Shown one piece after another: positions 36,132 to 63,898 of a stretch of 64,000 nucleotides of DNA (position 1 is the stretch's first letter; the number at the start of each line of letters is the position of its first letter). A program made the position numbers and the translations under genes. This DNA comes from Eledone cirrhosa (taxonomy: Eukaryota), in assembly GCA_964016885.1 (NCBI GenBank), contig OZ024745.1:106764001-106828000 (forward strand). Reading direction: 5' to 3'. The notes under the pieces were generated by a model. It searched no databases, had not been told where the DNA came from, and worked only from the letters and a program-made list of their open reading frames with translations.

Positions 36132-36212
<81 letters not shown>

Positions 36213-37837
36213 TAAAGAGAGAGAGAGAGATGTGTGTGTGTGTCTATATATATATATGTATAGTGATGTTTGAGGCGGAAGATCTCTGGACAAAAATACA
36301 TTGTGATTGCAATTGTGTCTCTTCTGAATTCAAATTCCACACAAGTCCACTTTTTCCTTTCAAACTCTTGAGGTCGATGTCATCGACTACCTTATAAAAT
36401 AGAGTGTGACCCAGCAAGGCCACACTGCAATGTATTGACGGCTATGTTACCCAATGTATTCTTTACTTTTTAAAGATAATGCAGGTTCAACTTGTGAGAG
36501 ATTTGGCTGTTAATTTTAACATATCAAGTGCCTGCGTAGAGTCACTAGTTGACCACCGTGTCATTTAATTGGTGTACGAATTTATCCTAAGTCATGTACT
36601 TCACTGAGTAATTTATAGTTACGTATTTCGTCACAATTTTCCTTCATCTCCGACTTTTACAACCTAGTATTAAGTAATGTGAAGCAGTGCATTTGTAGAC
36701 TGGTTGCAACGGTATTTGCACAACATGTTCCCTTCAAGTGCCAAGTTGCGGATTTATCATATTGCCAGACACGCCAAAGTTACCACCACAATATAAAGAA
36801 TAATTATCTGAGCGAATAAGGAGGTCACGATCTACCAGGCATTGTAGCTGTAGCTAAACCTCACCATACTGTTTTTCAAATGGAGAGAATTTAGCCATGA
36901 ATACACGAAGAAAAAAAAAATGTCCGTGGATGGAATGCCTTTGTTCAAGGTTATTCAATCAAGACTAACCTGAGACTAAGCAACAACCACATTACTATTG
37001 CATGGTATACAAATGAGGTAACCTTCTCATCATCACACGACCTGGTCCAAAATGGATAAAAGGGAAAGGTGAGGAGGCCAAGACTAGAATACCTTCGATA
37101 ATAGATCTCAACCAAAGCTGACTTAGTGGCTTTAAAATACAAAACAAAATGAAACAGAAATAAGTAAAATAAACTAAACAAACAAATAATTATATATATA
37201 TAATACTTTATGAACATTTAAAACTATCACTTTGTAGAAGATATTCTATTTCTTGTGATAATCAACAGAACTTGCTTCCGGATAGGCGAGAATCGTTGAT
37301 AAGTTAACTTAACAGTGATTTATTTTTTTTTCTTTTAATGCTGCGGTTGTGTTTGTGACAAATTACTTCCTTAGTTTAACATATATAAGATACAGAAGAG
37401 GAAAAGAATAAAAAGTATCAACAAAACCCGTAGAACTTATCTCAGAATAGAGAGAGAGGAGGAGAGAGGAGGAGAGTTTGCGCAGAGGACTGTATTTGAC
37501 ACAGAATGATTGATGAGAGATTGTTGCTAACCAGAGAATTCAGAGGTGTGAATTACCGATTCTGTTCGCAAATCCTGACACGAAATGATATTGCTGCAAA
37601 TTTGAACTACAGCCGCAGATATAACCCCCCCCCCCCCCCCCCCCCCAACAAAAACCAACAGTAAACTATTGGAAAATACTATTATAATAGTAGCTCGTTT
37701 GAGTTTTCTCTCCCTCGATGGCTGGTGAATTAAGTAACAGTTTAAGTAGATTTTAAAAAAAAAGGGGGGGGGGGGCGACGACGACACCTCCCCAACTCCT
37801 CCTAATGTTATATTCTGTTTATCTTAGAAATATTTAG

Positions 37838-39040
37838 GGTGGTGGATTGGAAGAATTAGTAGAGCGTCGAGCAAATTGTCTTATGATATTTAGTTAACTC
37901 TACTTTATATTCTATCAAGTATTTTTATGCACGAGTCGAGTTAACCCAAGCCAATCCCCACCTCTAGTTTCGACAAAAATAACTGGAATAACACCATGAT
38001 AGGTTGGTGATTGGCAGTATCGGTAGAGCGTCGAACAACATGCTTCGTGGCATATAGTTCTGAGTTCAAATCCTGCCGTGGTTAGCTTTGCCTTTTATCC
38101 TTGAGGGAGTCGATAAAATAAAGCACCAGTAGTTCACCGCTGTCGAATCAATCGACTCCCCCTTCCCCTCAAATTGCTGGCCTTGTGCCTAAATTAGAAA
38201 CCATTATTATTATTATCCATTCTAGGGTGGTGGATTGGCAGTATCGGTAGAGCGTTGGACACCATGCTTTGCAGCAGAGAGTTAGGCCCTTTATGATCTG
38301 AGTTCAAAACCGGCCGAGGTTAGCTTTGCCTTTCATCGTTAGGGGTCGATACCTAAATCAAAAACCAGACTCCATGCTGTTTAACAGAGTTATGGCCCTT
38401 TACGTTCTGAGTTCAAATCCCGCCGAGATTAACTTTGCCTTTCATCCTTGCGGGGGTAGATAAAATAAAGTACCAGTCATGAACTAGGGTAATTGCTAGC
38501 CTTGTGCCAAAAGTAGAAACAATTATTATTCATTCTAGGGTGGTGGATTGGCAGTATCGGTACAGGGTCGGACACCACGCTTTGCAGCATAGAGTAACGC
38601 TCCTTTACGGTCTGAGTTCAAATCCCGCCGAGGTTAACTTTGCCTTTCATCCTTACGGGGTGGATAAAATAAAGCACCAGTAACGTACTGGGGTCGATTT
38701 AACCCCCCCCCCATTACTGGCCTTGTACCTATATAAGAAACCATTCGTCCAGCATAGTTACGTCTCTTCACGGTTAACTTTGCCTTTCATCCTTACGGGG
38801 GTGGATAAAATAAAGCACCAGTAACGTACTGGGGTCGATTTAACCCCCCCCCCCCATTACTGGCCTTGTACTTATATAAGAAACCATTCGTCCAGCATAG
38901 TTACGTCCCTTTACGGTATGAGTTCAAATCCCGTCGAGGTTAACTTTGCCTTTCATCCTTACGGGGTCGATAAAATAAAGTACCAGTAATGTACTGGGTA
39001 ATTGCTGGCCTTGTGCCTAAAGTAGAAACAATTATTATTA
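37838..39040 (+). mobile_element. Head-to-tail SINE array with an internal ~135-bp duplication
   Basis: Several copies. ggttaactttgcc...gtggataaaataaagcaccagtaacgtactggggtcgatttaac(C)n attactggccttgtac.tatataagaaaccattcgtccagcatagttacgtc occurs at about 38632 and about 38772. Confidence 0.8.
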
Positions 39041-39689
39041 TCCATCCTAAATTAGTATGTAGACAGAGCACAAAGAATAGAAATCTGTCGACCCCGATAC
39101 CAACAAAGCTGAAGTGTATCTGTACGAGAGTATGAAATGTGGAAACGAACATGGAAACACTTCGAAGAATGATTCACGCGCGATCCCGTACAGCACATAC
39201 GCAAACAAAGGCACACACAGATATAGAAACACACACACACACACACGTGTGTGTGTGTGTGTGTGTGCGCGCGCGGTATTCGTTGCTAAAAGACAAAAAG
39301 TCTCCTCTTTTAATTACATACAGTTCAGAAATGACAAGACCCTCCCTTCCAAAATAGATATTTAATTACTCCAAACATGTTGTAAGAGCACATTACAACA
39401 CCAAACAAAACGCCGGCATCGCCACTATCATAAATAATAATAATTCTTCCACCATCCTCATCATCACAATGCAAGGTAAATAACTTTAATTCCTTCATAG
39501 CCAAACCTTTTTTTTCTTAATTTGCTTGTTAGTTTTTTTTCTTCTAAAAATAAGAACAAAACAACCTTACACTCCAGTAGTATCCTACATACAGCCACAG
39601 GTTATACATAAGAAAGTATCAGCACTTTGGAGAGTAATAACATGTAAATGGTTAGGGCTATATATTTATCCATACAGCTATATATAGAT

Positions 39690-39693
39690 ATAG

Positions 39694-39734
<41 letters not shown>

Positions 39735-40185
39735 TATATATATATGTACACCCGCATATATATATATATAAATACATACACACACACACATATGTACATA
39801 CGCATATATATATATACACACACATATATATGTACATACGCATATATACACACATATATGTACATACGCATATATATATACACACACACACATATGTACA
39901 CACGCATATATATATATACACACACACATATATATATATGTACATACGCATATATATATACACACATGTACATACGCATATATATATATATATATATACA
40001 CACATGTACACACGCATATATATATATATATATACACACACATATATGTACATACGCATATATATATATATACACACACACACATATATGTACACACGCA
40101 TATATATATATACACACACACACATATATGTACATACGCATATATACACACACATATATATGTACATACGCATATATACACACAT

Positions 40186-40224
<39 letters not shown>

Positions 40225-40225
40225 T
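39690..40225. repeat. tgtacatacgca(ta)n(ca)n minisatellite
   Basis: Seen directly, about 14 variable-length units. Confidence 0.9.
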
Positions 40226-42021
40226 ATGTAGACATATGTGTGTGAGTGAGTGTGTGTATATGCACACTCATTTTTCTTCTCTAACCTCGCTCCCACCCAC
40301 ACCATAACGTAACAAAGTAGAAATCTAAAAATATACAAAATAAAAATACATTTTCATATCAGCAACATACCCAGAGGTTAGAATCAATTTTCCATGTTTT
40401 CCTTTATTTTCTATTCATTATTATTTCATTATTATTGTTGTTGTTGTTGTTGTTATCATTATTACTTTTTTCGTTCTTTTTTTCTTTTTTTTTTTTTTCT
40501 TTATTACATTTTAACACGGATAAGTCTGCAAGGGTTTTATATGCAGGAAATTACAGTCAGCGGTGTGAGTGTCTTTGTATCGTACCCACCCGCCGTGAAA
40601 ACACCTAGCCAACAACACCACCACCACCACCACCACCCTCATCACGACCAGCTTCATCACTTTCCCCCATCCCTGACACTCCCCAATAACAGCAGCCTAA
40701 ATCAGCATTGGCACCACCACTACCACCACAGCTACATAAACAACCACCACAACGACAAATCATGTGTGGTATGCTACGGATAGACTGAAGGTTTACAGTA
40801 CAGGAAATTACGGCATTTCCAACTTGTCGAATGTAATGTTTCATTTCAAAACCATTATTAATACAATCTAGTCGAATGTAATGACAAACAATAGCCGACG
40901 GGTGGTAGAGGCAATGATAATGGTGGTGATGATAGCGGTGATAACATTGGATATAACATCGTTAGACGTATTTTTTTTTTTTTAGAAGAGTGTGTGTGCT
41001 TTTTTTTATATGCTCTGATACTCACACACCACACCTATTACAAACATTCCAAGCATCACCAATGCTATACACCATTAGCAAAATCCCATCAAGCCAGCTA
41101 AGAAAACTCTATGCAGTGGCTCGATATGCTGAAAATAATAGCCAATTCCGCCTCACACCCACTACTCATTACTCATTACTGTCTTAATGGGGAATACACA
41201 TTAACATAACTAAATGCACTCCTAGTCGGATTATGCCCGACAAAAACAAACCAATCAAAGACGGGGATGGTTTTGGCTGGAATTTCTTCAATTATAGGTC
41301 TATATGACCAGAGTCCAACAGACCATTGCTAGATCCACTCTAATACCGAATTTTCTATATTTTCCAAAGGGTCAATTGATTTATTTTATTGTTGCAGTCC
41401 CCCTTGCTCGTTGTTTTTAGATTTTTAATAATGTTATATAGAATATTTATCTACTAAGTTTATCGATAACAGCAACTAATCGAAGTTGTTCAACTCACTA
41501 TAACATGTACGTGAGACCGTACCTTGAGGCATTTGCTAGAAATAGCAAAAAATCTTTCATATAAGTCTCCACACCTTACTGGCTTTATACAAGGGTAAAG
41601 AATGTTTGGATAATAGATTCGAGATAAAAAAAGAAAGGAAAAAAAGATGTGGTTGTCAAGGTTGGAACCCCTTTAATCAAGGGATTGATCGGACAATGAT
41701 TACATACTATCGCTAAAACAGTATAACACAGCACAAAGCATAAGTAAAAATTAAATCATTATTATTATTATAAGCTTATGCGCATATATGCATGAGTGAG
41801 TGCGTGCCAGGAAGGGGAATGGCTTTATAAAAGAGCATATTCCGAAAGGAGAATGATAAACGCTGCCAAGTTGTAAACAATGGAGAACCCCAAGTTGGCT
41901 CGGATAAACTGTATTGTTGTTTAACCATAAGTCAAGCTCTGATTAAGCAAAGTTATGACCAAAGGCGTTCTTCAGTCATGACCACCCCATTCTTTTTTTT
42001 TATTCGCTGGCTTTGTAAAAC

Positions 42022-42082
<61 letters not shown>

Positions 42083-42772
42083 GCAGAGTGGTGAATAACA
42101 AGATGTTTTTGAACCGTGCAGTAAAGGGTTGGTTGGCAGGTCGAGTTGACACGCGCTGAAGGAATCTCCTAGTTAAATTAAGATCAAAGAGATGTGTTGT
42201 TTTTTTTGTATATATTTCTAGAGACTAATTATCTTGCACAACGTCATTTGTTAGCCATCACTACCTCCTACTCCTCCTCCTCAATAACAACATGAAAGTT
42301 GATGAGAGTGTCAACTTCCATAGAATGTTAGTGAAAAGGTGAGATGATCATCAATGCAGGTGGTAAGTGTCAACGAAGAGAATTAGAGAGCAAAGGGATT
42401 AGACAGCGGTAAACCAGTCAAAATAATTACTATGAACTTGAAAAGAGGTCTCGCAGCAGAACGAATAAAAACGTGTATGGGGCGGTGTGGGGCCATTGAG
42501 CATTTAATTAAAAGAACTCATCCCAAACTAGATTCCACGTGGAAAACGGAAGCTGGTGATCGCTTTGATGTCGGTGAGTTTACAACAACAGGTATTATTA
42601 ATTACACAAACCAACGAGAGAGCCTTTACACGGTTACTCAAACTGCTAGAACTTCCAGCCAAATCGTACACTACCTTTGACACATTGAATAATATTGTAC
42701 TGAATAAAAGAGATGTTGACGGTTGGAATCAGGGCCTACCTGCTGTTAAACAACTCCAATAGCATTAATTAA

Positions 42773-42820
42773 TGCCGAAAAGGGTGTGGTGCTGATCACA
42801 GCCCCACACCCTTTTCGGCA
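42773..42820. repeat. GC-rich hairpin
   Basis: tgccgaaaagggtgtgg-t-gctg-atca-cagc-c-ccacacccttttcggca: 17-bp perfect stem, 1 mismatch, 4-bp stem, 4-nt loop. Confidence 0.85.
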
Positions 42821-43637
42821 AAAACACTGCGTTCAAATCCAAGAACTGTCCACTCTGCTTTTCATCCTCAAATAAGTAACTTCAAAAGTCGATCATACTA
42901 TTATTATACAAAATTTGTGGAACTGTGTCAATTTTAGAAATCTAGGTTTAATGAAATAAGCTTTAGTAAAAAAATGGGGTCAATTTTCTTAACCATCTGT
43001 GTCAGCCTTAGAAATCATTAATTACTATTCACGGAATAAGGTTAATTTGACTTTGTAAGGTTAATTTGACTTTGCATGATGTCTCAGTTATTGTTGTTTT
43101 GGCTCAAGTCAATCCAAAGTGAAGAAATCTATAACGATATATTTCTAAGCAGTGAATATTCCATTTGCTCCTACTTAATAGTACAACGAGAACTACATTA
43201 CCTAATGTTTCTTCTCTTTAGACAACCGAGTGTATTTATGGGAAATTTACTAAGCGTTTCCAACAGGTAAAATAACTATATACTCTATCTCGTTGATTGA
43301 TCGTCTCTCTAATTTACTGTTGTTGCTCTTTATCCCTAGTTGAACCCTAGTCGAGAAGAAGTCTGTCTAACTTATCACCCAGTTGTTTGGAATAATATCC
43401 TACTTAAAGAAGAAATTCAATAAAATTGCACATGAACACAATTGCAGAGAGACAAAGTATGACCGACTGGAACCTTACGAGATGTACATTAAACAATACT
43501 GTTTTAAGATGTTTCAATTAAACCAAATGGAAAGAAGACGCGTGAAACCATTTTATGGTATAAAGCTGAACAATTTGCAGAGCTCCAGTGAGGTACTATG
43601 TGCAGAAAAATAACGTCCACATTTTGAAAACCAAACC

Positions 43638-43683
<46 letters not shown>

Positions 43684-45745
43684 ATGTATGAATGTTTTAG
43701 AGACAGATAAATAGATGGGGAGGGACGTAGTGAATTATATTCTCCGGGTTATATACAAATACAACAGACAAAAAGATAGAATATAACCATGGCATGAATA
43801 CCTTTTGATAAAGCCGGTTATATTCAGCAGAACCGACTTGGAGCTAAACAGCAAGAGCAGCAATCCGGATCACTTAAAAACGAGGTGAACGAGACATGGG
43901 TGGGAGGGAAAAACAGACACGCATCAACAAAGGAAAATGTATTCAGATGGAGATGGCGAAACCGAAACTGGGTAGTTTGTGGTGTGGGGAAAAACAGGAG
44001 TGAGAGATAGATAGAAGGGTGTGGTTTTGTATACTTGCTTCCCAGAGGCAAACTCCCCATATATATATATATACACACACATATATATTATATATATATA
44101 TATACACACATATATATTATATATATAATATATATCTCCAGAAACATGCCACCCACTTTCAGGTCTAATTCACTAAAATAACAATGACTAGATTGAATGC
44201 AGCCGAGAAATTTCCAAAGCTTACTGATTGTTCGAGAAAGTGTGAGAAGTAGGAGGAGGTGTGGATGGGAGAAAGGGGTGAGCGGGGATGATGAAGCAGG
44301 AAAACATGGCGACGGTCTGTTTTGATAAGGAAATTTAAGATGAAAAAAGGTAAGGTAGTCAAAACCACGTTTCCGGTCTCTTTGGAAGTAGTAACTAACC
44401 CACAGAGACTAGGCAGGATTATATTGTAAAAAGACGGTAGAGGTAACTTGTATTATAGAAAGAGAGAATGAACGAAATAAAAGTGTGTATGTCTGTGTTT
44501 GGCACGTACTTGCCTGAGTGCGTGCACTTTTGAGTGTGTGAATGTGTGTATGTGTGTATGTGCGTGTGTATGTGTGTATGTGCGTGTGTATGTGTGTACG
44601 TGCGTGCGTGTGCGCGTTTTATGGAAAAGCAGACCAAGTAAATAAAGAGGATAAATTAAGAAATGGATAGTAAAATAAATGGAAATACGAATTATGAAGA
44701 CAAAGTGGAAATATGGAAAGAAGGAATTTTCATCAACGTATAAAATAAATAAATAGATAAAAGGGTACCTATATAAGGAGCATGCAGTTTATAAACAAGA
44801 AACAAACATCAGATGAGTGGCTAGCAAATAGTGCATTAAAAAAAAGAAAATACGCTTTGTATTTATTCCAACCAAATTTCACATTCTTGCTACTCTTGCC
44901 ACCAGAAATGCAATGAACCAGTAATTGCTCCACTGGATATTTATAACCGACGAAACTATTGTTCACAAAATGCACGATTTAAAAAAACAGAAACCTACAA
45001 AAGTAAGTTTGTAAAATACCCTAGGCAATTCACAAATTACTTTTCCGTACACCAAGAAAATTTTCGAGAGAGTGGTAGTACTCAGTCAAGTTAGGTATTG
45101 CTAGGCTCCATTCGGTCATAGTGAAAACGCGTTAACCCCCCCAGCAGTTAAGGTTTTGAACTCAAGATCATACGGTTGTGGGTTCGATTTCAGGACAGGA
45201 CTCACCGCCTCATATCACGTTGATTTTCTTGATACAATTGAGCACCCCTATCATTGAAACCAGTGTGAGACAACCACGTACGAGGCCAACTAAACATGCA
45301 TAGGTGTGAGCTGTAAAATCTGAAAGAGCTCTGAGATCCAGCATATATTTCGCCACGCATATTAATCCGATGCTTTAACGAATCTGTTAATTCGCCCTCT
45401 AAAGGTAGACAATGACACAAATAATCGATTATCATATTATAATACTAGTTTAAAATTACATTTTGAACCATATGGAAGCAGGCAACAACCAACCTCCTAG
45501 AGCCACTAGATAAAGACGTTTAAATCGGCATTTTAAAGGAAAGAGCGATGTACTCTGGTGGAACCAGATGGCAGCGTTAATGATTTTTCTTGATTTGTGA
45601 AGGAGCATAGCTTAATGGTTACGGTGTTCGGCTCAAGACGTTAGTTCCATTCAGTGGAATGCTCAGGCACTTGTAAGTTAATTTCACGAGTAGGCAGTTC
45701 TGGGGATTAAACAACAGGAACGTTTTCCGCCGGAGCCATACATAC

Positions 45746-46033
45746 CAGTCTACGAGGGACAAACTAGTATTTATTACAATACCATTCAGTCTACGAGGGA
45801 CAAGGGGACTGACTAGTATTTATTACAATACCATTCAGTCTACGAGGGACAAGGGGACTGACTAGTATTTATTACAATACCATTCAGTCTACGAGGGACA
45901 AGGGGACTGACTAGTATTTATTACAATACCATTCAGTCTACGAGGGACAAGGGGACTGACTAGTATTTATTACAATACCATTCAGTCTACGAGGGACAAG
46001 GGGACTAACTAGTATTTATTACAATACCATTCA
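45746..46033. repeat. 49-bp minisatellite (5 near-identical units plus one 41-bp unit)
   Basis: cagtctacgagggacaaggggactgactagtatttattacaataccatt starting at 45787, 45836, 45885, 45934 and 45983. Confidence 0.95.
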
Positions 46034-46458
46034 AAAGTCAATGAAGAAACACACATACACAGCAGCTTCTGGTATTTGTGTATTTATTTTAACGACCTTG
46101 GAAGGGTGAAAGAAAGTTGATCTCGGCGTGATTTGAACTCAAGATGTAACCACAAGGTATTTTATCTCATGCTCTACCGACTTCGCTATACACACACACA
46201 TGCATGCATGATAAAACATTTATATTTAGGTGATCCTATTTCATGCGTCTATCCCGGTAAATATCTTCACACCAGATGTGTGTGCGTGGGAGCGCGTACG
46301 TGTTCATATTGCATATGTCTGGACTCAATTTAGCAGAAAAGGACTTATAAACCATTAAGGATGTTTATACTTCATATATAAACTAAGCTGATAACAAATT
46401 GGAATATGGTGTATGTACTTATATAGGGGCCTCTCCGCTCTCCTCACTCTCTCTCGAG

Positions 46459-46960
46459 GGGGAGAGAGAAGAGAAGAGAGAGAGAAGGAAAGAGAAGAGA
46501 AGAGAAGAGAAGGAAAGAGAAGAGAAGAGAAGGAAAGAGAAGAGAAGGAAAGAGAAGAGAAGAGAAGGAAAGAGAAGAGAAGGAAAGAGAAGAGAAAGGA
46601 GAGAGGAGAGGAGAGAGGAGAGAGGAGAGGAGAGAGGAGAGGAGAGAGGAGAGAGGAGAGGAGAGAGGAGAGGAGAGAGGAGAGGAGAGGAGAGAGGAGA
46701 GGAGAGGAGAGAGGAAAGGAGAGAAGAAAGGAGAGAAGAGAAGAGAGAAGAGAAGAGAGAAGAAAGGAGTGAAGAGAAGAGAGGAGAGGAGAGAGGAGAG
46801 GAGAGAGGAGAGAGGAGAGGAGAGAGGAGAGAAGAAAGGAGAGAAGAAAGGAGAGAAGAAAGGAGAGAAGAAAGGAGAGAAGAGAAGAGAGAAGAGAAGA
46901 GAGAAGAGAAGAGAGAAGAGAGGAGAGGAGAGAGGAGAGGAGAGAGGAGAGGAGAGAGAG
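46459..46960. repeat. Polypurine (AGAGG/AGAAG) tract
   Basis: About 500 bp of almost pure A/G on the plus strand. Confidence 0.95.
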
Positions 46961-47468
46961 ATTTGCAAACACACACAATGCCTACACAGAGACAAAAATC
47001 TATTTAATGTCCTGTTAGTGAAGATGTCTCATCAGAATGAAATTATCACTGTCCTCAAAACACTGAGTAAAGATGATTCGAGATCTCAGCAGTCGTTTCT
47101 ACGTATGTTTCTCTTTCTTTTTGGAATTATTGACGTAATGTGGAAGGAAATAGGGATTTTAAAAGTGTGCGTAACACTGGGTTCATTCATGGAAGGTGTT
47201 GAAGGGTAAGCTAAACGAAAAAATGCCCACGTTTTCATAATTATTTTCAAGTATGACAATTCAATAACACACATACACAACATATTCGTAACCCGAGTTT
47301 GACAGAAATACAAACCACATAGTATATTTGCATCAAATAAAACGAGGACCGGATGCAACTGCAATATATATATATATGCAGAGGTTATATTTAATTTGTT
47401 AGGATTCAACAAGCTTAAACATTTTTATAACTAATATAAAGCACTCAACAAGTTAGTGGAGTAAAAAC

Positions 47469-47857
47469 ACAATATATTAATAAATGGAAACTATATTTAT
47501 AAAACTATATTTATTTTATGATATATATATATTTCAAGGGCAACCAAGGCAAATTATGGTGCGCTTTCATCAGATAAAATACAGATTTGTTTTATAAATA
47601 AATATTGACATACCCGGAAAAAAGACAACCTTAACGGTTGAGGATAGTGGAGATAATATTTTATTGCGGGTAATCGAAATATCTCCACCATCCAGGAAGC
47701 TTCAACCGTTAAGGTTGTCTTTTTTCCGGGTATGTCATTTATTTATAAAACAAATCTGTATTTTATCTGATGAAAGCGCACCATAATTTGCCTTGACATA
47801 TATATAATAAAATAAATATGGTTTTATAAATATAGTTTCCATTTATTAATATATTGT
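47469..47857. repeat. Long fold-back inverted repeat (about 170-bp arms) carrying HHR-A; Penelope-like pLTR remnant
   Basis: acaatatattaataaatggaaactatatttataaaac...gacatacccggaaaaaagacaaccttaacggttga is mirrored by tcaaccgttaaggttgtcttttttccgggtatgtc...gttttataaatatagtttccatttattaatatattgt. Confidence 0.9.
47512..47581 (-). ncRNA. Type I hammerhead ribozyme motif (HHR-A), complete
   Basis: Minus strand: uauuuuau-CUGAUGA-aagcgca ccauaauuugccuugg u ugcccuu-GAAA-uauauauaua-UC-auaaaaua. Stem I is 8 bp and perfect. Stem II is aagcgca/ugcccuu (1 mismatch) plus cca/ugg. Stem III is an alternating-AU palindrome. Predicted AUC cleavage between 47520 and 47519. Confidence 0.75.
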
Positions 47858-47900
47858 ATATATATATATAATTTTTTTTCTTCTGTGATATATATATATA

Positions 47901-48100
47901 TTAATATAGAAAAGCTTCTACAGGACTAGAACTGTTTCATTCGTAAGAAATCATCAGGAAGCTGACTGTCCAAGTATGATGATTTCTCACGAATGAAACA
48001 GTACTAGTCCTGTAGAAGCTTTTCTATATTAAAACATTTATACTCTGCTATGTATTGAGTACCTTACTTACTGTGGTTACCCCCGATTGAACCCGGAATA
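47901..48100. repeat. Fold-back (56-bp arms 47901-47956 and 47977-48032, 2 mismatches, 20-nt loop) carrying HHR-B, plus the family 3' extension
   Basis: ttaatatagaaaagcttctacaggactagaactgtttcattcgtaagaaatcatca vs tgatgatttctcacgaatgaaacagtactagtcctgtagaagcttttctatattaa. Related sequence recurs at 50824-50963 and 63674-63735. Confidence 0.9.
47913..47963 (-). ncRNA. Type I hammerhead ribozyme motif (HHR-B), complete
   Basis: Minus strand: agcuuc-CUGAUGA-u uuc uuac gaa u-GAAACAG-uucuaguc-CUGUA-gaagcu. Stem I is 6 bp and perfect. Stem II is uuc/gaa closed by U.U. Stem III is ACAG/CUGU with a near-palindromic loop. Predicted GUA cleavage between 47919 and 47918. Confidence 0.8.
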
Positions 48101-48134
48101 ACACACACATACACATATATATATATATATATAT

Positions 48135-48223
48135 GAAAAGAGTCAGGACACCGACCGTTTCGACAGTTCGGATTTAGCTGTCGAAACGGCCGGAGCTCAG
48201 CCGTCAGGGTCCTCACTCTTTTC
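48135..48223. repeat. Fold-back containing the 3' half of a hammerhead (GAAAC-ggc...gcc-GTC)
   Basis: Outer arms gaaaagagt/actcttttc and inner 12-bp arms ccgtttcgacag/ctgtcgaaacgg. GAAACGGC-cggagctca-GCCGTC forms a stem III plus GUC site, but there is no CUGANGA upstream. Confidence 0.7.
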
Positions 48224-50175
48224 CTACTACCCACTCCAGTACCCTAAGTATGGTGCATTATGGTGCACCTGGTATCTTACCACACCCTTTTTGTTTTTAT
48301 ATATATATCCATGGGCCTTGATCATGAAGTCGTGGGACGTCGTAACGTAACATACGGTGTGTCTTGGGCATTTTGACCATCAAGGCCCGTTTCCTTCTGA
48401 GAGAGAAAGAGAAAAGGGGGTATGAATCGACCCTAGCACTCAACTGGTACTTTATCGACCGAAAAAAGATGAAAGCCTAAGTTCAATTCACAGGGATTTG
48501 AACTCGTAGTGCAGAGCACAGGGTCGAATATTGCAAAACATAATATCCGACGTTCAAGCAACTCTGCCAACTCACATATATATATATATATATATACATA
48601 TGTGTGTCTGTGTGTGTATGTGTGTATGTGTGTGTAACAAACGTTAAACACCAAGTAGTGTGCGCGTGTTCGCGTACACGTGCATGTGTGTTGGTGAATA
48701 TTTGTAAAACGAACAGAAATGTGCACATAATGCACATTAAGTCGCAATACAATGGGTAACAACAGATGGCAATAAGCCAGACGACACCTGATAATTAAAT
48801 ACGAGGTCATTCTGGGCGCTTACATATTTGCATCTGTCTGTACATGTGCGCAGGTTCGTCGTCGATGTCGCTTTCTATCCATAGCTTTTGTCAAAAGTAA
48901 TCAATTTGAGAGAGAGAAGGGGGCGAAGTTAGGAATATACACATACACAGTGAATTAGAGGGAAGAGAAATCGGATTAGACTGGATACCACACACACAGA
49001 GTATATATATATATATATAGTTATAGGAACACCAATTCCACACACATTGTCATCATTACTCGCCTACCTCTACCGAGGTAATGTAAACACACTTAGAAAC
49101 TGAAGACAACACTAGTGTTTCAATTGGACGCTACTTTAGTCTCTAGTCGAGACAGAGATATTAGCTAGCCAGCGCTAATCTTTAAAGAATTAATCGTATT
49201 AAAACTTTGAAGTAATTTTAAAATCAATCTCACCGTGTTATAGTAAGCAATCCAGAGAAATTAAGCTTGCCCGTTCCCAAACTAAACCTTGTCTTTAAAA
49301 AAATGGGAAGAACACATTGAATAGTGTTATAAATACAGGGTTTTAATACCTGGAACGCTATAATAGGTCTGCTTGGATAACAGCTCACATTGGATACATT
49401 GTCTAAAAATAAATTAGGATTATCATGGCTTGAACAATTTGATCTTAGACATGCTTGATCACAGTTGATCTGAGATTAAACAACCATGGATATACGCGCC
49501 GACAATAAGTTGAATATCTCAATTTGGACTCTTGGAAATATAGATTAATCTGAAAGAAGTAGAATAATCGTTAGCTGATTACAATCTGATCTGCCTTCCC
49601 TAATTGATATGTAAATCTGAAAGATTCTCAAAGATAGTAGGGAAGTTTCAATGGTTTGAGAAGGAAGAAAAGGAGGAAATATATAAAGTAAAATCTAATA
49701 GAAGAGAAATCTGTAAACTAAAATACAATCTTAAACGAATTTCTCACTAAATAACCTTCAATAAACTATAAAAATCGCAAAAACATATGGGGATATCAAT
49801 ACACCTAGAATCCATAACTCATATACATACACACACAGAGTCAGCAATTCATAAATAGAAATCTCACTAATAGCAATGTGAAGTTCACACAGGACGACAA
49901 AATAACACAGCAATAACAGAACTAACAATTTCCAGCGACTTTTAATATTTAGCTGACTAGCCAATCTTTTCATGAACAAAACATCATCACGCATATGGTA
50001 GCTTGTTTACTAGTCACCCGGAGCGGAGCGCGGCTGAGGCACCACCCGGACTGGGGTGAAGTGTCTATCCCTGCCACCCTCCCTTGCTTTTTTTGTTGCT
50101 TGATCCTTTTTTTATTTTTCCTCTTCGTTCCATTTAATAGTGTTTTGTTTTTCCTAGATTCTGTATTTCTATATA

Positions 50176-50355
50176 ATTGTTTCTACTTTTGGCACAAGGC
50201 CAGCAATTACCCCAGTGTATTACTGGTACTTTATGTTATCGACCCCGTAAAGATGAAAGGCAAAATTAACATCGGTGGGATATGAACCCAGATCATAAAG
50301 GGCCATAACTCTATGTTGCAAAGCATAGCGCCCACCCTGTACCGATACTGCCAAC
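50176..50355 (-). mobile_element. Main-family SINE
   Basis: Reverse complement of the family motifs. Confidence 0.8.
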
Positions 50356-50507
50356 ATGACATTGAGAGATTTTGTATATTGAATGTGTTTTGCATTTCAA
50401 TTATTTCATTTGATAATTCGAAAAATGAAACTACAGTTAATTATTTTATGTTGTTCTATCTGTAAGATATTACTTTACTTCATTTATTAAACACATCTAA
50501 CTATAGA

Positions 50508-50538
<31 letters not shown>

Positions 50539-50823
50539 TATATTATATTACCGGAGTAGTGGTTTTATATATCCAGCTTCCTTTACACTACCACATTTAA
50601 CGAGGTTTGAAAGTACCAGACGACCTGGCCATACTTGAAATCAGAAATGTCAAACATTGATTATAGTACAGTACTAATACTGAGACATCTATAATCATCA
50701 ATGATGGTCAAACTAATAGATATAATAAACGTTCCCCAACCCCCAAACTGGCTACATTCTGGCTGAATTAGAAATCATTATTGATATTCCTATTTGCGCA
50801 CGCCCGAGAATATGCGTGTAAAT

Positions 50824-50963
50824 CCCAAGGTGAAATCGGGAATAACCACAGTTAAAAGGGTACTCAATAGAGCGTAAACATTTTTTAAATATAGGAATGC
50901 ATGCCAGATGATTTCATACGAATGAAACAGTTCTAGTCCTGTAGAAGCCATTTCTATATTAAA
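50824..50963. repeat. Second, inverted and decayed copy of the HHR-B family
   Basis: 50833-50895 is the reverse complement of the family extension at 48021-48090. It is followed by cagatga-tttcatacgaat-gaaacag-ttctagtc-ctgta-gaagc (core mutated CUG->CAG). Confidence 0.8.
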
Positions 50964-52287
50964 TATATATATATATATATATAATCTATATATATAAAAC
51001 AAAATATGTATTTTCCCGCATTTATACATAGCAGTTCATGGTTATAAAACTGTCCCTAAACAAAAACAAATAGGTATGAAAAACGACAAAGAACCGGTCC
51101 CCCTCCACCACCACCACCACCACCACCACCACCACCTTCAGTTGAGGAGAGAGGGGATAAAGAGAAAGAGATAAGTGATAGAGATTGTGTAGTAAGACTG
51201 TAAATTGACACAGGTCGTCTTAATTCATACACTTCATTGGCCATTATTTACATAACTATTCAAAGTTTTACAAGGCTTAATGATATCTGGCTGGCAGTTT
51301 TGAAGTGGTATGACAAGAGAGCTGCGAAGAAATTTTATTTTATAGTGTGAAAAGTACATTGTTGGCGAAAAAATTCTCACCGAGTCAGTTTGTATGGGTA
51401 CCGGTCTGGAGGTTAGCAAAGAGAGCCTTCCTGGTTAGGTGTACACACACACAATGTATATATATATATATACACACACAAATAAAATATAGAGTTACAC
51501 ACTCATATAGGTACCCTGCAATGAAAACAAGCTCAAAGTATAAATACCGAGCATTATATAGTAATATATATGTATAAATATATATATATATATATATAAA
51601 AGATTAAATTTTTAAAACATTAGTGGTATCTTATACCCTCGTAATTTTAGACACGAAATTTACTGTGTTTATTTATTTATACACACACACACACACACAC
51701 ATATCTATATCTATATATATACTACGGTTTAGTAATAAAGATTATCTTATAAACGTGTAGTACCTTCACTCACGCACCCGGATGTATTGATAAAGCAATA
51801 TAAGACCACATCGTAAAACTATATATAGAAAGATGATAACCATTACGTGGTCACTTAGTTGGCTAGAAATACCAGTCAAATATTGCCTGAAATTAGACAC
51901 TACTCTCTCTCTAAGAAAGCAAAAATAGAGACACCAAGAAAGTATGCATATGGGATTTAAAGACACGATTGAGCTGGTTTTGAACATCAAACAAATGTGG
52001 GTAAATGTGTGTGTGCGCGCGCATGCCCATGCCGCTGGCTTCTCGGACAACATAAGACTGTCTAATAATATCATTGACCATCTCCAGTTTCGATACTCCA
52101 CCTCGCGCCACTTGCATGTGTTGTCTTGAAACACCAGCTTAACACTGATCGAATAGAACTATATGACCAAAAGCATTTCATCAATGATTATCGTACGTAT
52201 ATGTGATATGTAGGGCTACATAATTTAATATGGTGTGTGTGTGTATGTATATAGTAATAATAATAAATTTGAAGACTAAAATCTTGC

Positions 52288-52405
52288 AACGTTTTTTTTG
52301 AAATATTTACTTCTGCGTTCACAGATTGACTTTTTTAGTTTCAGAAGATCCCGTTAAGGGTGAAAGTAGCGATTCTTTGCTTAAACTTTAATCTGTTATT
52401 TTAAT
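52288..52405 (+). repeat. Dispersed copy of segment 6800-6918
   Basis: aacgttttt...gaaatatttacttctgcgttca.agattga...tttagtttcagaa.atcccgttaagggtgaaag...cttaaactttaatctgttattttaat is shared between the two sites. Confidence 0.8.
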
Positions 52406-52642
52406 TTAAAAAAAATATATATATATATATATATATATAAGCTGTTTTTACAAAACGTTTTTTTTTCCCCATTTCAAGTAGACGCACGCCATCATCCACT
52501 TTTAAAAAAAAACAAATCATACACAAAACGCCAACACCAACAGATATCAACATGAATGGACCTGTTATTTTTTACCTGAAGACATTTTTTCCAATTCCAT
52601 CCCCTCCCCCCGTCACCTCAATCTATTTTATTTCTCATTCTT

Positions 52643-52680
52643 TCCTCTGATGAAAGACTAGCACCCGAAACGTTAAGATC
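52643..52680 (+). ncRNA. Degenerate minimal hammerhead motif
   Basis: ct-CTGATGA-aagactagcaccc-GAAAC-GTTA-ag: core and palindromic AACGTT stem III present, but stem II and stem I pair poorly. Confidence 0.4.
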
Positions 52681-52765
52681 CTCTTTCTGCTATATCAAGC
52701 GTTAACCTAATATATACCTTCCATATACTGTACCGATTGTGTTGTTATTTCTGTTTACCTTTTAC

Positions 52766-52874
<109 letters not shown>

Positions 52875-53541
52875 ATTGGAAGAAATCTCAGCTGCCAATT
52901 CTAACACTATTCTTAAAATAAAAAAGCAAAGCATGTTTAGCTGGCACCCTACAAGGTTACATCTCATACGAAGATTCTAGGGTGTTAATGATATGGATCT
53001 GAATCTTATCATGAAGATCAAAATAAAATGAAAGGCCTTGCCCAAAATTACAACGCACATCCATTGAAACTCGGCTGGTTTCACTTGGGGATCCAGCCGG
53101 ATCAATTGGAGACTGTTGTTTCTGACAAACCCGCTGAAAGGATGACTCTACCCTCTACGGCCCTTTCAGGAATAAGTGGACGAAGAAGATCATCTGGTTT
53201 GCTCTCTCATGTAAACAGATATATGATGTATGTATTCATTTGGCATACAATTTAGAGCAGACAATAACCAAGAAACATGTTTAACAGTGGTCGGTTTCTA
53301 ACCAGCAATGACTTTACTGTCTAGTTTCCATTCAATAAATGTACAATCAACAGCAGATCAACAAGTCTGTTGTTCGATCTACTACAAAGGCAGCCAAACA
53401 TTTAAACAACTATCATATTAAAAGAAGTAGAGAAACATTGAGTTATGTAAAAAGTTTAGATTAAATTGGTTTCAGATATTTTAAGTTGTTGTTTTACTCT
53501 AAGTTTACTTTACTGATTTATGGTTTGACGTATGTTATATA

Positions 53542-53845
53542 ATGATTTCTACTGCAGGCACAAGGCCAGCATTTTTGGGGGTGGTGGTGGTGGTGGCGGG
53601 TCAAAGAGTCGCTCCAGGTAGAGTTGCTACGTCTCCGAATTGAGAGATCACAGCTTCGATATTACGAGCATGCGGTTAGATTAAATCGACCCCAGTGCAT
53701 TACTGGTGCCCTTATTTTATCGACTCCTGAAAGAATGAAACGCAAAGCTAACCATGGCGGGATTTGAACTCAGAACGCAAAGGGCCGTAACTATGCTACA
53801 AAGCATGGTGTCCGACGCTCTACCGATACTGCCAACCCTCCGCTT
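53542..53845 (-). mobile_element. Main-family SINE interrupted by about 80 bp of unrelated sequence
   Basis: Tail at 53542-53580, foreign segment about 53600-53678, remainder 53679-53845. Confidence 0.65.
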
Positions 53846-56800
53846 AGGTTAACAAAAATGTGTTCTCGACTAGGGCTGACTGACCTGGAATAAGCAACAA
53901 AACGAACAAAAGTTGTGTTATTTTATCTAGCCTCTTTCGAAAATCTGCTTTCAACACCCACCGACGCCACCACCACCTAGCTTTCTAGTTATGTTTACCT
54001 TTTACATTCTATTCATTTCTATTTTTCCTTACACTCATACAAAAATCAAGCACTAGCTTTTGTTTTGATAGTATGTATGTGCATTTGGGCATATGCATAT
54101 AAATGTATAATACGCCGTGTGTGTGTGGTGTGTGCGGTTTCTAGAATATACCATTTTTATTTAACGTATTTAGATAAGTATTGTAAGAAGAAGAAAAAAA
54201 AAAGAGGGTGGAATAGAAAAGTAACATAATTTGAATACATCTACTGAAAGAATAAGAGTATCTCTCTCGCCACATACACATACAAACACGCACCTAGCTT
54301 GTCGACACACCTATAGTGTGTATAACTGTTAAAAGTTTTATGGTGGGCGTGACATTCCAAATTGACAAATCCCGTTCTTGAGAAATAGAAAGCGGCATAG
54401 AAATTATTATTATTATACAAAGTGCTCTTCAGTAAGTGCTACCAGACCACAAAAACTGATTTAAGTAAAAAAACTAACTAACTGGGTGGAAAATGAAATT
54501 ATTATTATTATTATTGGTGAATTCGCCAAGTCGTTAGAGCGTAAGACTAATCGATAGCAGTATTCTTTACATCTTCTCATTCTGAGTTCAAGCCCACCCG
54601 AAGTCACCCTTGCCTTTCATCCTTCTGTGGTCGATAAAGTGCCAATAAAGGTCTGGGATCGCGGTAATAGAGCCTCACCACCACCAAACTGGTGGCTTTG
54701 TGCCAACATTAGAAATCATTATTTCACTGAGCTTAGTCTCGTCAACAGGCTGCGATCATAATGCAGAAAACCTTTCAATAGTATAGTGGGAAAGCACCAA
54801 TGTAACTACTTGATTATCGTCCTCAGTAAGGTGAAAATCATCGTCGATATATGCAGGATTTGAACGCGGAACTGATTTGTATAATACCAAATACAAAGTG
54901 TTTGTGTATATGAAAGTAGGTCTATAAAACTCTGCAACTCTGCTTTGCCCTCGGACCTGCCAGAAACAGTAGCCAAATCTCTCTTTAAAAAAAAAAAAAA
55001 ATAAAAAAAAATTAACCTTATTGCTTTAAATACATGATGGGGTTGTCACGGCTCCCAATGCCTCATATCAACACCCCTATCAACAACAACATCAACACTA
55101 TTAAAGTAAAATAGGTTTCAGCAAGCATGCCCTACTTATTCTCTACAATGAAAGGTGCTGTCAAATGTTGGAGACTACTTGCAAATGCACATATAGTAAG
55201 CAGACCTCCCTACTCTCCGTATCAAGTCATAATGCCAACACTAATCCTACGATCCCCACCGATATCACTTCAATAAGATGTATACTATTCTACACAAGGA
55301 CAAATTGTACGTCTGCCTGGTGTAATTTGATACGAGGCTCACACACACACACACGTATGTATGTGTGTATGTGTGTATGTGTGTGTTATTCGAGCTTCTA
55401 CAGAAAACACACCAAGTAAACATTTGTTGACCAGAAATAAAACCGTATTACTATAATCTTTTTATCAGAAACTTTTAGAAGACAAACTTACTCTCACCAC
55501 ACAACATGAGCACCAACCCTCATAGTACACAAAATTATACAACACTTTGTTATTACTGCGTAACATAATCTACTGGATGTTAGCTGAGAACATGCCTAGC
55601 CAACAGATGTTTGAAGTTAGTCAACTAAAGTACTACTTCTGTGAACTTACCAAAGTAACTGCATAGTTAGCTATATATATATATATCAACAATAACTGTG
55701 TTACCTCCAAGTTCTGAAAAAACTAGACGAGAATTAGTTCATCTCCAGGAGACCATGAGCTCGTAAATTGTTCCAATCGGCCATCTTTCAATCATAGGTA
55801 CAGTATATACAATTCACCAAATAACTGAATTAAACTGCGACAAGTCAGCATTGAAACAAAGGGAGGAAGGACACTTTGGATATAGTTTTCGATATTCATA
55901 CAAACGGCGGGATGTTCAATGCTGGATTCAGATTGATCATAATTTTGCTATATCAAGCTTGACCTCAGTTAAATATGTAATATCTACTACACCATTCTTT
56001 CCTCAATGACGTACTTAGTGCCACTCTTACATTTCTGCAAGAAGGCAAAAAGATCTGACAAAACGACTAGAAAGCCCCTAGTTATTCGCCCAACTTTTGG
56101 AAACAACATAAAAAAAAGGAGACAGGTTATGTAGTTGCGAATTCACTAAACTAGAATAGAAGTCGGAAGAGTTATGGATCAAGCGCTACAGATCTGTTCA
56201 AGATAGAGCTAAAGAACAGCAATAATATCAAAACCAACTCAATATTTACACGGCTTGATCTTGTTTGTTGTCTTTCCTTTTGAAACAATAGTATGTGAAT
56301 TGAAATAAAATGTGTTGCTATCTCTCACAAAATATACCCGTACGGTATATGCGATTAATGTGTAAAACTAACATTTTTTTTTCTTTTTTAAACAAGTATT
56401 TCGTTCAGCATCTCAATTGTTTCATGGTAGTAATGATACCACAATATGCAAAACTTTTTCTCTCCTCATCTCTCTCTCTATATATTTTTGGAGTCTACTA
56501 AGGCTCAAAATGTAAAAAAAAAAAAAAAAAAAAAAAAAAGCCCTTGTGAATAGAATTTCGTGGTCGGAAACTGCAAAACCCCGTGAAGTAAGTAAGTAAA
56601 GTGAGTGAGTGAGTGAGTGCGTGTGTGCGCAAGCGCACGCGTATCTCCGTTGATGTTTATAACGCAATTTAATGGCTCGACAAAAGTAAATGAGATCAAT
56701 AAAATAAGTAGCAGGTTTGAGAAAAAGTTCTGGAGCGATATACTCGACTAAATTAAAACGATGCCCCAGTATGGCCAGTCATAGTGAAATTGGGCAAAAA

Positions 56801-57996
56801 TGTAAGAGAATATATATTCTAATTGTCAAAATCTAAGTGACACTACTACAATTACTACAACTATACAAATACTACTATTAATAATAGTGGAGGTGATCAG
56901 GGTCAGATTGAAACAACCTAATGCCTACTCCCGTACAATGAAGAAGAGGGCAGGCTTTGTGTATATGAATGTGTGCGCGCGCACATCTATGTGTAGTGTC
57001 TGAGTAGAAGGGAAAAAAAATATAGAGAAGAGTCAATGTTTTAAAAAGGTAGCAGCTGTGTGTGGCTTGCCCCGCTGCCAATGAAATAATTGGTAATGTC
57101 TTGTAGGCATGTCAGTCCCATAGGAGTGTGTGAAGTGTTGAGTATAGTAATAGGCATGACACAAGTAAAGTCCTCTTGAACAGAAGGAGACATTCTTTTG
57201 ATAAAGGAATAAATAATAGAGAAAGAGAAAAAAAAAAACCCCGCTAAAATGAAAAGGAAAAAATAAGAAAAAAATAACAATCCTCCCCTACAAACTAACA
57301 TACGTTTTTTTTGTATATATATATATTCTTAAGTGACAGGAACATATAAAGGAGTAATTCTGTTAAATCTATATACTAAGTACTTGCCTAAGGATCAAGA
57401 TCTTAAATCATTTCCTTGCCATCAAACAGAAACACTTTCCAATTTGCTGCAATCAAAAGATTTACCCTAACCACCAATGATTGACTGATTATCGCTTAAA
57501 ACGGCAGTCTAACAAAGTCAACACTTTTAACATGAACGATTTTCTCTTTTTATGTACAGACAGGCAGACCCCACTTTTGAATAAGAAGAGATCAGATTCT
57601 CCCAATAAGTGTGGGGAAATTCTCTCTGCTGCAAATTCAATAAACAAAATAGTAAATTACCAATATCAATATGCAATAAATGACAGGTGAAATTTCTGTA
57701 TGGATTTAATTATGGAACTTTACGTTCTGAGATCAAATCCTGCCGACATTAACTTTGCCTACCATCGTTCCTTGATTGATAAAATTAAACACCAATCGAG
57801 TAGTAGTTCGATTTTGTCGACTTATCCTCTCTGTTTTCTTTTGTCGACTTATCCTCTCTAACCCGCCAATCTGTCGCATCCGGAGTAGTTAGTATTTATG
57901 TTAACTCAACATTTCCTCTTTACAGTGTTGCAGGAGAAAACCTTTTGAAAACTAAACCAACAATAAGTAGTGACAAACAAATGTCTATCATTTTTG

Positions 57997-58042
<46 letters not shown>

Positions 58043-59426
58043 GTTATGAATAACGCAGCTGATACTCAGCAAGAATAACTCCAGGAGAAAATGTGAGCGG
58101 AGTTCAAAGCTTTGCATTCAATAACAAATATATAAAGACAAAATAGGATATTGTGCCAAAAAGAGAACCTCCACGTAGTCACTCGAAATGCAAGAAACAG
58201 CAGCCAAATCTTTCAAAAAAATACATATTACCATTCTTTTCTAAAGGACATGTTGGATAACGCAGTCTGAGATCATGTGTCTGAAACCAATAGGATGGAT
58301 GGTCATGGCGAGAATGCCTTTATAAATCTGGCTCGATCAAAGATCACTCTAGGACTAAACAACGACGAATGGTGATTTGTAGTAAAATAAACAAAGAGAA
58401 AGGACAGATAAAACGGTCACAGAATTCTTTCCATCAGTACTACTATTTCTGATCTATGAAACAGACTGAAAGATTAAAAGAATTGTGGATGGTGGGCAAA
58501 GAAATATACCATCAACACATGGAAGAAGTAAGTTTACAAAAAAAGTAAAAAAAAAAAAAAAAAAATACATCCTGATCTTTCTTTATTTGATATTTATATA
58601 AATAAATATTGGTCCATTCTAAGTAAAAGACTACCAGTTGTATACAAGGTTTTCTTCTTTTTTCTTTAGTTTAATGATAAAAACATGTTTTTGAAAGACA
58701 AAGTTCAAAGGAAACCCTGAAAAGTCATACACATATATACGCAACAACAACAAAAGATAAATAGAAACATAAATTACAGAGAGAGCGAGAGAGAGAGAGG
58801 GTAAATATTGAGTGTTTGAGTCAATTGTCCATATGAAACAGCAGCATGAAAAGTCGAAACCTTAAAGACAGAAAGACTATAACAAATGACACAGATCTAT
58901 CAACTGGGAATGTTAAAATGACAAGGCTTTCAACTGAATATATATATCTCCTGAATATATAGGTCTATACTCTTCCCCACCCCCCTCTCTCAAACACAGA
59001 CACACACACATTCATTTCAGTTTGAAAAATAAAAGGGTAAGACCGTAAGCTTCCATAATTGCACCCGGTGACCTATTAGATGGTTGGTTATCCATTAGTT
59101 TGAGTGTACACACACACATACACAGACATATATATATATATAGTTAAATAAAATAAAACAAAACAAAACAAAACAAAACAGGAAGCAAAATTAATATATA
59201 CATATATATATATATATATAGATTGGAAAACGAAAAATCAGTGATGCAATTTATTGTGTGTTACAATTGTTTCCCCGGCGAACAGCTCGAGGTGCGATCC
59301 GTGTGTGGATCTACCTGACTCTAGACTCGCAGGTTCCTCGGACACGTCTATTGATTTCGGAGCATATCCTCTTTCTCAACCGGCATACCACCTATAGAAG
59401 CATCTTAGCTACCATTAGACACACAC

Positions 59427-59470
<44 letters not shown>

Positions 59471-59514
59471 TATGTATGTATACGTACATACATATATGTA
59501 TACAGACGTACAGT

Positions 59515-59574
<60 letters not shown>

Positions 59575-59707
59575 TGCACGTATCGGTTTACCGAACATTT
59601 ATTATAATGCTCGGTTTGTTTGTTTGTAAACAAACAAACAAAGCCCGAATTACGCTGTACAGTGTTTAGGCAACCACGTCACCTTTTTGTTCAACACTGA
59701 CACAGGA

Positions 59708-59750
59708 ACGATGTACTAGTTTCAAGCTTATTAGCTATCGTCAGCATCGT
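59708..59750 (-). ncRNA. Minimal type I hammerhead ribozyme motif (HHR-C), Penelope-type
   Basis: Minus strand: acgaug-CUGACGA-u agcu aaua agcu u-GAAAC-ua-GUA-caucgu. Stem I is 6 bp and perfect, stem II is 4 bp, and stem III is reduced to the palindrome ACUAGU. Predicted cleavage between 59714 and 59713. Confidence 0.82.
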
Positions 59751-59869
59751 ATACCTTCCTGCCAGATGGTTGAACGTCTGAAAGTATATACTTTCCTTAT
59801 GCATATTAACGGCTGAGCAGCCTAATTTGCATATCGAGTGAGATCAGTCGGCCGGGCACACCGAAAACG

Positions 59870-60021
59870 ATAAATGGAATAGAATGAAACGAAATTTCAT
59901 TTCTCACTCTTAGTACGGCACTTACTTAAATGTAAGTATGTATGTATACGTACATATATATTTAAGTAAGTGCCGTACTAAGAGTGAGAAATGAAATTTC
60001 GTTTCATTCTATTCCATTTAT
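59870..60021. repeat. Perfect 62-bp inverted repeat with 28-nt spacer
   Basis: 59870-59931 ataaatggaatagaatgaaacgaaatttcatttctcactcttagtacggcacttacttaaat is the exact reverse complement of 59960-60021. Confidence 0.92.
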
Positions 60022-60568: not shown

Positions 60569-60606
<38 letters not shown>

Positions 60607-62784: not shown

Positions 62785-62824
<40 letters not shown>

Positions 62825-63673: not shown

Positions 63674-63735
63674 ATTTCTATATTAAATATTTATACTTTG
63701 CTATGGGTTACCCCCCGATTGAACCCGGGATACAC
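63674..63735 (+). repeat. Third remnant of the HHR-B family (downstream segment only)
   Basis: tttctatattaaatatttatactttgctatg-ggttaccccccgattgaacccggga matches 48021-48098 with an internal deletion. Confidence 0.7.
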
Positions 63736-63898
63736 AGAGACAAAGAGAAAGAAATGGATAAAAACGAAAGAAAAGAACGATCAATGGAATGTGTTGTTAT
63801 TTGTATATATTTTAATTATGTCCATGGTTCTGAAGGAAGGAGCTAAGAGTCTTAGTATCATGAAACCTCTGGTAATGCAGAGATAAGTCAAACTAATA

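Follow-up and report, generated by a model that had tools for sequence, protein, structure and literature searches.

A hammerhead-bearing hairpin in an RGM intron of Eledone cirrhosa as a likely by-product of PLE-type insertion

Introduction

Within a 64,000-nucleotide stretch of the Eledone cirrhosa genome (assembly GCA_964016885.1, contig OZ024745.1, positions 106,764,001 to 106,828,000; referred to here as the window), a minus-strand hammerhead motif lies head to head with an inverted copy of most of itself. The initial annotation of this sequence described an intact ribozyme locked against its own antisense copy and proposed that the inverted duplication acts as a built-in off switch, which lets a self-cleaving motif be tolerated in a transcribed intron. 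The question raised by the locus is whether such a lock was selected or comes with the way in which the sequence was inserted. The analysis reported here favors the latter: very probably, the hairpin consists of the 3' ends of a hammerhead-carrying repeat, joined head to head, which the reverse transcriptase of a Penelope-like element (PLE) is likely to have placed in a (TA)n tract. In that case, the lock is likely a side effect of the insertion rather than a switch that selection has shaped.

Results

Structure of the hairpin and its host gene

Both Pfam searches of the genome recovered a single RGM (repulsive guidance molecule) gene. RGM_N and RGM_C 2-58 were found in one exon on the minus strand, 22 kb past the window, and RGM_C 57-237 on the minus strand from window position 27994 downward. 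Because RGM exons lie on both sides and the splice signals between them are in phase, the insertion is placed inside a 58-kb intron, where the complete motif runs in the same direction as the gene (Table 1). The intronic position assumed in the initial annotation agrees with the predicted gene structure. The same intron contains 18 listed fold-backs of at least 40 bp, some of them overlapping, so that the hairpin at 47901-48102 is not special as a candidate ADAR substrate. A single A>G difference at 47945 in the four contig runs was rejected as a sign of editing; G is the commoner base of the family at this position and was attributed to other copies.

Positions within the repeat are given on a natural copy, L030 (q1-506), in which C3 is q379, H17 is q417, the short end is q435, and the tail end is q506.

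Table 1. Coordinates of the hairpin, its flanks, and the host gene (window positions unless a contig is named).
Feature	Position	Strand	Basis or remark
Tail-less short arm	47901..47976	-	98.7% to natural copy L030, q360-435
Minimal type I hammerhead motif	47913..47963	-	U.U at 10.1-11.1; predicted cut 47919/47918
Initiator-like hexamer	47960..47965	-	Stem I begins with its A (47963), which is also where transcription of the element would start
Inverted arm, 5'-truncated one base past C3	47977..48032	+	Antisense to the hammerhead on minus-strand RNA
3' tail of ~70 nt, plus arm only	48033..48102	+	L030 q436-504
Left (TA)n target	47886..47900		Sequence
Right (CA)n/(TA)n target	48103..48135		Sequence
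Downstream RGM exon	27305-27994	-	Pfam profile search
Upstream RGM exon, carrying the GDPH motif	G000:C5:106850247-106850714	-	Pfam profile search
Window part of the 58-kb RGM intron	27995..64000	-	Continues to extended position 86249; GT and AG in phase

The conserved core elements (CUGANGA, GAAA, and UH) and three stems are all present in the minus-strand motif. Stem I pairs 47963-47958 with 47918-47913, and the core occupies 47957-47951; stem II has 3 bp and a 4-nt loop, GAAA lies at 47938-47935, and stem III at this locus has 4 bp and an 8-nt loop. H17 is the A at 47919, which matches the cut that had been predicted at 47919/47918. The completeness of the motif was likewise borne out, with every core element and stem located within 47963-47913, and so was the description of the opposite arm, which begins at 47977 and lacks both C3 and the 5' strand of stem I. 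The claimed pairing of 54 of 56 nucleotides was recovered between 47901-47956 and 47977-48032; on minus-strand RNA, the two differences between the arms become one U.G wobble and one U.U mismatch. The energy of the fold-back is -90.1 kcal/mol (z = -18), and none of 200 shuffles was equally good. The word "intact" holds for the sequence motif; the initial annotation had left out the U and U at 10.1/11.1, as well as the run of the plus arm to 48102, with a 70-nt tail that is absent from the minus arm.

Besides the whole hammerhead motif and the short 3' end of the family, the short arm includes 13 nt from upstream of the putative start. The TATA box that stands 31 nt upstream of this start in long copies is missing from the copy at 47901-47976. 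At this locus, the tailed arm ends at q380 and the short arm at q360, so neither arm ends at +1, and the two are joined without an inserted base. Read on the minus strand, the tail contains a splice-donor-like GTAAGT (within 48048-48078), sense to the host gene.

A hammerhead-like variant that the hairpin is predicted to silence

Positions 10.1-11.1 are U.U, not the usual G-C, in this copy and in 217 of 221 sampled family motifs; neither the standard G10.1-C11.1 nor another standard pair closes stem II, and the motif is therefore called a hammerhead-like variant. Changes at 10.1-11.1 reduce the rate of hammerhead cleavage. Rfam yielded no hammerhead match in the 64-kb window at the gathering score and none among the 21 matches to 47450-48300 at E values up to 10. 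The miRNA matches in that interval were dismissed, being far below the gathering score and merely reflecting the hairpin.

Sequence variation within the family nevertheless follows the fold at one position of stem I, where a second subfamily swaps one pair on both sides: over 142 scored arms, this pair is C-G in 104, A-T in 28, and something else in 10, in a sample biased by the search patterns and for a covariation that amounts to one event inherited many times. The covariation suggests that the hammerhead fold is under selection somewhere. The remaining variation falls mostly in loop II.

In folding calculations, the three-stem structure had a probability of 0.02 when the motif was taken alone; adding its native flanks lowered this to 1e-4, and the entire fold-back to about 1e-44. 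The mechanical part of the earlier proposal, that the antisense arm is made first on minus-strand RNA and blocks the ribozyme fold, thus agrees with the model, in which the predicted probability drops from 0.02 to about 1e-44; the prediction for RGM pre-mRNA is a folded hairpin in which the motif is silenced. There is probably little to lock, however. According to the available text of PMC4209133, PLE hammerheads show high conservation of G10.1-C11.1, and no cleavage was detectable for a single metazoan PLE motif; the portions of PMC11167929 available describe an Anolis PLE hammerhead that cuts only with its protein, the main template being uncut RNA. Given the U.U at 10.1-11.1, the weak fold of the motif alone, and the reported inactivity of PLE hammerheads, the motif is probably near-inactive anyway.

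Other hammerheads and repeat remnants in the intron

The hairpin has several neighbors of related structure. A fold-back of another family (47462-47864) carries a minus-strand hammerhead motif at 47581-47512, whose stem III is a palindromic (TA)n run; the inverted partner of this motif, at 47750-47819, is damaged. A third family is represented by a solo minimal hammerhead on the minus strand (59750-59708), in which stem II is also flanked by U and U and upstream of which octamer-like and TATA-like motifs occur; no second match to this motif was detected in the 87 kb searched. Next to the tail of the studied hairpin is a GC-rich hairpin repeat (48137-48230), related copies of which flank other loci (L047 and L118).

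Remnants of the same family are present as well. In an older insertion (50834-50966), an inverted tail piece is joined to a plus-strand hammerhead arm (q378-439). Further remnants in the RGM intron lie at 63675-63732, extended 68161-68197, and extended 76277-76151, the last of which is a second-subfamily sense copy cut off at C3, with stem I lost.

A repeat family with PLE-type insertion marks

The hammerhead motif is part of a repeat that is dispersed across the genome. A first look yielded 1,837 family candidates, with 45 matches shown, and an exact 23-base core has 1,982 genome copies, 606 of which have an inverted arm no more than 30 nt away. The head-to-head junction pattern was found at 5,799 loci, compared with 2 for the reversed control; this pattern is looser than the core and spans several subfamilies. 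For an unpicked sample, all occurrences of the exact core in the first 166.3 Mb of contig C1 were taken, giving 91 arms at 81 loci. An inverted partner lies upstream in 48 of these 81 loci and is adjacent in 41, counts that miss distant partners given flanks of ~600 nt for most loci. Exactly one arm carries the tail in 40 of the 48 pairs, with the tail on neither arm in 7 and on both in 1, some of these being misses of the script; read by eye, 19 of 20 hand-picked pairs have a one-sided tail. A microsatellite follows within 8 nt of the tail end in 109 of 119 cases, and upstream of long copies there is also a microsatellite.

According to the available portions of PMC8557442, PMC3846280, and PMC2377424, PLE insertions can be told by a 5'-truncated copy that lies inverted against the 5' end, by a tail confined to one side, and by microsatellite targets. 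It is the combination of these three features in the present family that leads to the reading of PLE-type insertion.

No ORF continuous with the repeat was found in flanks of ~1.5 kb on each side of 90 loci; the tail continuations share no coding sequence, and downstream of the tail there is no common sequence. No head-to-tail hammerhead tandem occurs in the loci examined. Within 1.5 kb of six copies (L005, L006, L027, L046, L131, and L139), there are ORF fragments, not continuous with the repeat, that we take to be PLE-like RT or GIY-YIG on the strength of their motifs; these are probably nested insertions. Because no RT/GIY-YIG ORF is linked to the family, the mobilizing enzyme is inferred, and the family is filed as PLE-mobilized, not as an autonomous PLE. 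The repeat thus inserts like a PLE and is probably non-autonomous or truncated.

Arm ends and an extra G at the putative start site

The 5' ends of the arms are not spread evenly. Among the 91 sampled arms, with end positions good to about 2 nt, 59 end at q371-380 and 6 at q346-370, and 26 continue through the TATA box. Thirty tail-anchored copies, this locus included, start at q373-380 (12 copies), at q381-430 (15), or further up (3), with none at q105-372. The genome-wide core behaves in the same way: extended by 7 bases downstream, as a control for decay, it keeps 1,583 of 1,982 copies; extended to q373, it keeps 728, a drop that also loses the second subfamily; and with 5 bases more, 290 remain against about 620 expected, a fall that is somewhat overstated since the pattern misses an upstream variant present in 6 of 60 long arms. 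Position q373 is both the first base of stem I and, in long copies, the A of the initiator-like hexamer. Upstream of this +1 position, L030 has TATA at -31, CACCC at -56 and -72, and CCAAT at -83, which we take to be promoter motifs along with the initiator. Together, the motifs and the pile-up of ends would fit a start site inside the terminal repeat. Separately, L026 and L030 were seen to contain a ~210-nt internal duplication of the promoter-like region (oriented positions 1100-1400), with a CCAAT box in each unit.

A second regularity concerns the base in front of +1. Over 72 junctions, this base is G in 51, A in 11, and T in 10, where the background share of G is 0.21-0.23; as the test fixed T at -2 and excluded templated C, these numbers are not the share of all +1 ends that have a G. 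The excess was measured at +1 ends, with the background share and the long arms as the comparison, and G occupies -1 in 0 of 60 long arms. In the first 30 junctions viewed, the G follows unrelated flanks in 19, some of them pure (TA)n; of the 7 with T at -1, a natural variant with long copies accounts for 5. A subfamily with a templated upstream G was considered and rejected, for the flanks of the 19 G loci differ and none of the 60 long arms has the G. For example, in L207, L211, L216, L225, and L226, the extra G stands at +1 directly after (TA)n or host DNA, with no inverted arm, and L219/L220 (G000:C2:206321030-206321069) is a perfect palindromic junction with an extra G on both arms. In the 51 cases with G, the -2 T is preceded by A 41 times and never by T.

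An extra G also precedes full-length L1 insertions, where the available text of PMC11702581 reads it as a copied cap. On the evidence of the genome copies, the end pile-up and the extra G suggest run-off copying of a capped, uncleaved RNA. Given the preference for A before T, the G could instead reflect terminal-transferase bias and not a cap; it would still mark the end of the template. Truncations at the predicted cut (q416-419, in 3 of 30 tail-anchored copies) might have pointed to cleavage, but such joints are equally well accounted for by stem I complementarity, and this reading was set aside.

Proposed insertion route and its alternatives

The following route is proposed. A PLE enzyme would nick both strands of a (TA)n tract, and priming would take place inside the sense RNA at two fixed sites, q506 (the tail end) and q435 (the tail start). 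Each cDNA would be copied toward the 5' end of the RNA, most of them running off at a capped start that coincides with the first base of the hammerhead, and run-off would often leave an extra G; the two cDNAs would then be joined head to head. Here, copying of the tailed arm would have stopped 7 nt short of the start, and that of the short arm would have continued 13 nt past it; the latter needs an upstream template, either read-through RNA or the 3' copy, unless the joint is what a later deletion left of a longer palindrome. A locus on another contig (L004) has nearly the same joint as that at 47976/47977. In vitro, as far as the available sections of PMC11167929 describe it, a PLE cuts and extends both strands, and two internal start sites bound the tail. 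We regard this full account of the fossil record (a cap at the hammerhead's first base, two-site priming on uncut sense RNA from both (TA)n strands, G at run-off, and head-to-head joining) as evenly balanced between right and wrong.

The same PLE origin could have produced the inversion differently, through snap-back of the cDNA at the base of stem I or self-priming of an antisense RNA; neither two primed strands nor a capped start would be needed, and the verdict on the off switch would be unchanged. The 5' strand of stem I contains a 4-nt palindrome at which many junctions are indeed centered, and L053 and L054 join through the stem I complement itself. Precedents are given in the available parts of PMC3846280, where self-priming on an antisense template is proposed for head-to-head Penelope repeats, and of PMC11371274, where snap-back after full-length cDNA is described for R2. 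However, a subfamily without the 4-nt palindrome folds back at the same place, and the extra G at +1 in the five loci that have no inverted arm, as well as its presence on both arms of L219/L220, argues against snap-back. At the locus studied here, each arm holds junction sequence that is missing from the other, which speaks against plain snap-back of the tailed arm. We therefore consider such a route rather unlikely. A DNA transposon (a MITE or foldback element) or an assembly artefact is highly improbable. The short non-coding palindrome, the AT-rich target, and the failure to find a coding partner would suit such an origin, and none of the four contig runs spans the hairpin stretch. Yet the asymmetry largely refutes it: the arms are unequal in a fixed way, with the tail on one side. 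Moreover, junctions vary base by base between loci, solo copies and long directional copies with promoter motifs exist, and the two arms at this locus differ at 2 of 56 positions.

There remains the selected off switch, according to which only antisense-locked insertions are tolerated in transcribed introns, as the RGM pre-mRNA would otherwise be cut. Several observations are in its favor. The motif is sense to the host RGM gene; the predicted lock is thermodynamically overwhelming, with the antisense arm made first; stem I covaries across subfamilies; the neighboring sense motif at 47581-47512 is likewise paired with an inverted copy; and the other sense family copy in the intron, at extended 76277-76151, has lost stem I. 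Against this, inversion arises at insertion in about half of the loci, and the same intron contains a motif-complete sense hammerhead (59750-59708) that is unlocked in the 87 kb searched. Solo copies account for 8 of 20 fully intact arms, as counted by the lack of a partner within the flank and irrespective of gene context. The motif alone also reaches the three-stem fold only at the low probabilities given above, and single metazoan PLE hammerheads showed no detectable cleavage in the available text of PMC4209133 and PMC11167929. With the inversion being the ordinary insertion product of the family, as the 5,799 junctions and 48 of 81 sampled loci attest, and with unlocked intact copies present, the claim that the inverted duplication evolved as an off switch is not supported, and we judge it improbable. 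Introns can tolerate ribozyme cleavage.

Discussion

The hairpin belongs to a known kind of structure, and the single locus is ordinary, one of thousands of PLE-type hairpins. The part worth pursuing is the family-level pattern of start site and extra G. The distribution of ends, together with the G, makes several aspects of PLE replication testable, namely, the choice of template strand, whether hammerhead cleavage precedes copying, and the reason why inversions are head to head. If the run-off model is true, head-to-head Penelope palindromes would be explained without an antisense template, there would be in vivo support for an uncut ribozyme in the copied RNA, and each "strong-stop" insertion would lock its own ribozyme and seed long dsRNA in host introns. 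The PLE-type route mass-produces near-perfect intronic hairpins and is thus a plausible supply of candidate editing substrates.

Comparison with known systems

The closest parallels are the endonuclease-bearing (EN+) PLE insertions described in the available portions of PMC8557442, PMC3846280, and PMC2377424, which resemble the present family in the inverted head-to-head copy adjoining their 5' end, the tail at one end only, the microsatellite targets, and the hammerhead within the repeat. TATA and initiator-like motifs in the repeat, as seen here, are described in those sources for Adineta Pen2a. By contrast, the tail is given there as 30-40 bp compared with about 70 nt here, where the whole insertion is only about 200 nt, and EN+ PLEs carry an ORF with a telomerase-like RT and a GIY-YIG endonuclease between pLTRs, whereas none joined to the repeat was found in the flanks of the 90 loci. 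In the literature searched, mostly open access, no description was found of PLE ends that accumulate, with a cap-type G, at a start site on the first base of the hammerhead.

The metazoan PLE minimal hammerheads, as characterized in the accessible text of Cervera and de la Pena 2014 (PMC4209133), resemble the motif in type I topology, intact core, dispersal as single motifs, close opposite-strand pairs, partly palindromic loop III, and expected low activity; here, in contrast, U.U replaces G10.1-C11.1, stem II has only 3 bp, and stem III is longer. Anolis Poseidon PAc, in the sections of PMC11167929 available, is alike in its two tail-bounding start sites just downstream of the hammerhead, its AT-rich targets, and its uncut RNA template, but is autonomous, with an ORF that starts inside the hammerhead; in the present repeat, no start codon was seen to lead into an open frame. 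Animal non-LTR retrozymes (bioRxiv 10.64898/2026.07.22.740005, in the part available) are likewise non-coding, tied to PLEs, and equipped with a type I hammerhead, although they are built as tandem hammerhead units, unlike the loci examined here. Finally, L1, as presented in the accessible part of PMC11702581, has a non-templated G at the inferred start, as does the family described here; the differences from L1 are that the G is deduced solely from genome copies and that it belongs to a PLE-type repeat primed internally.
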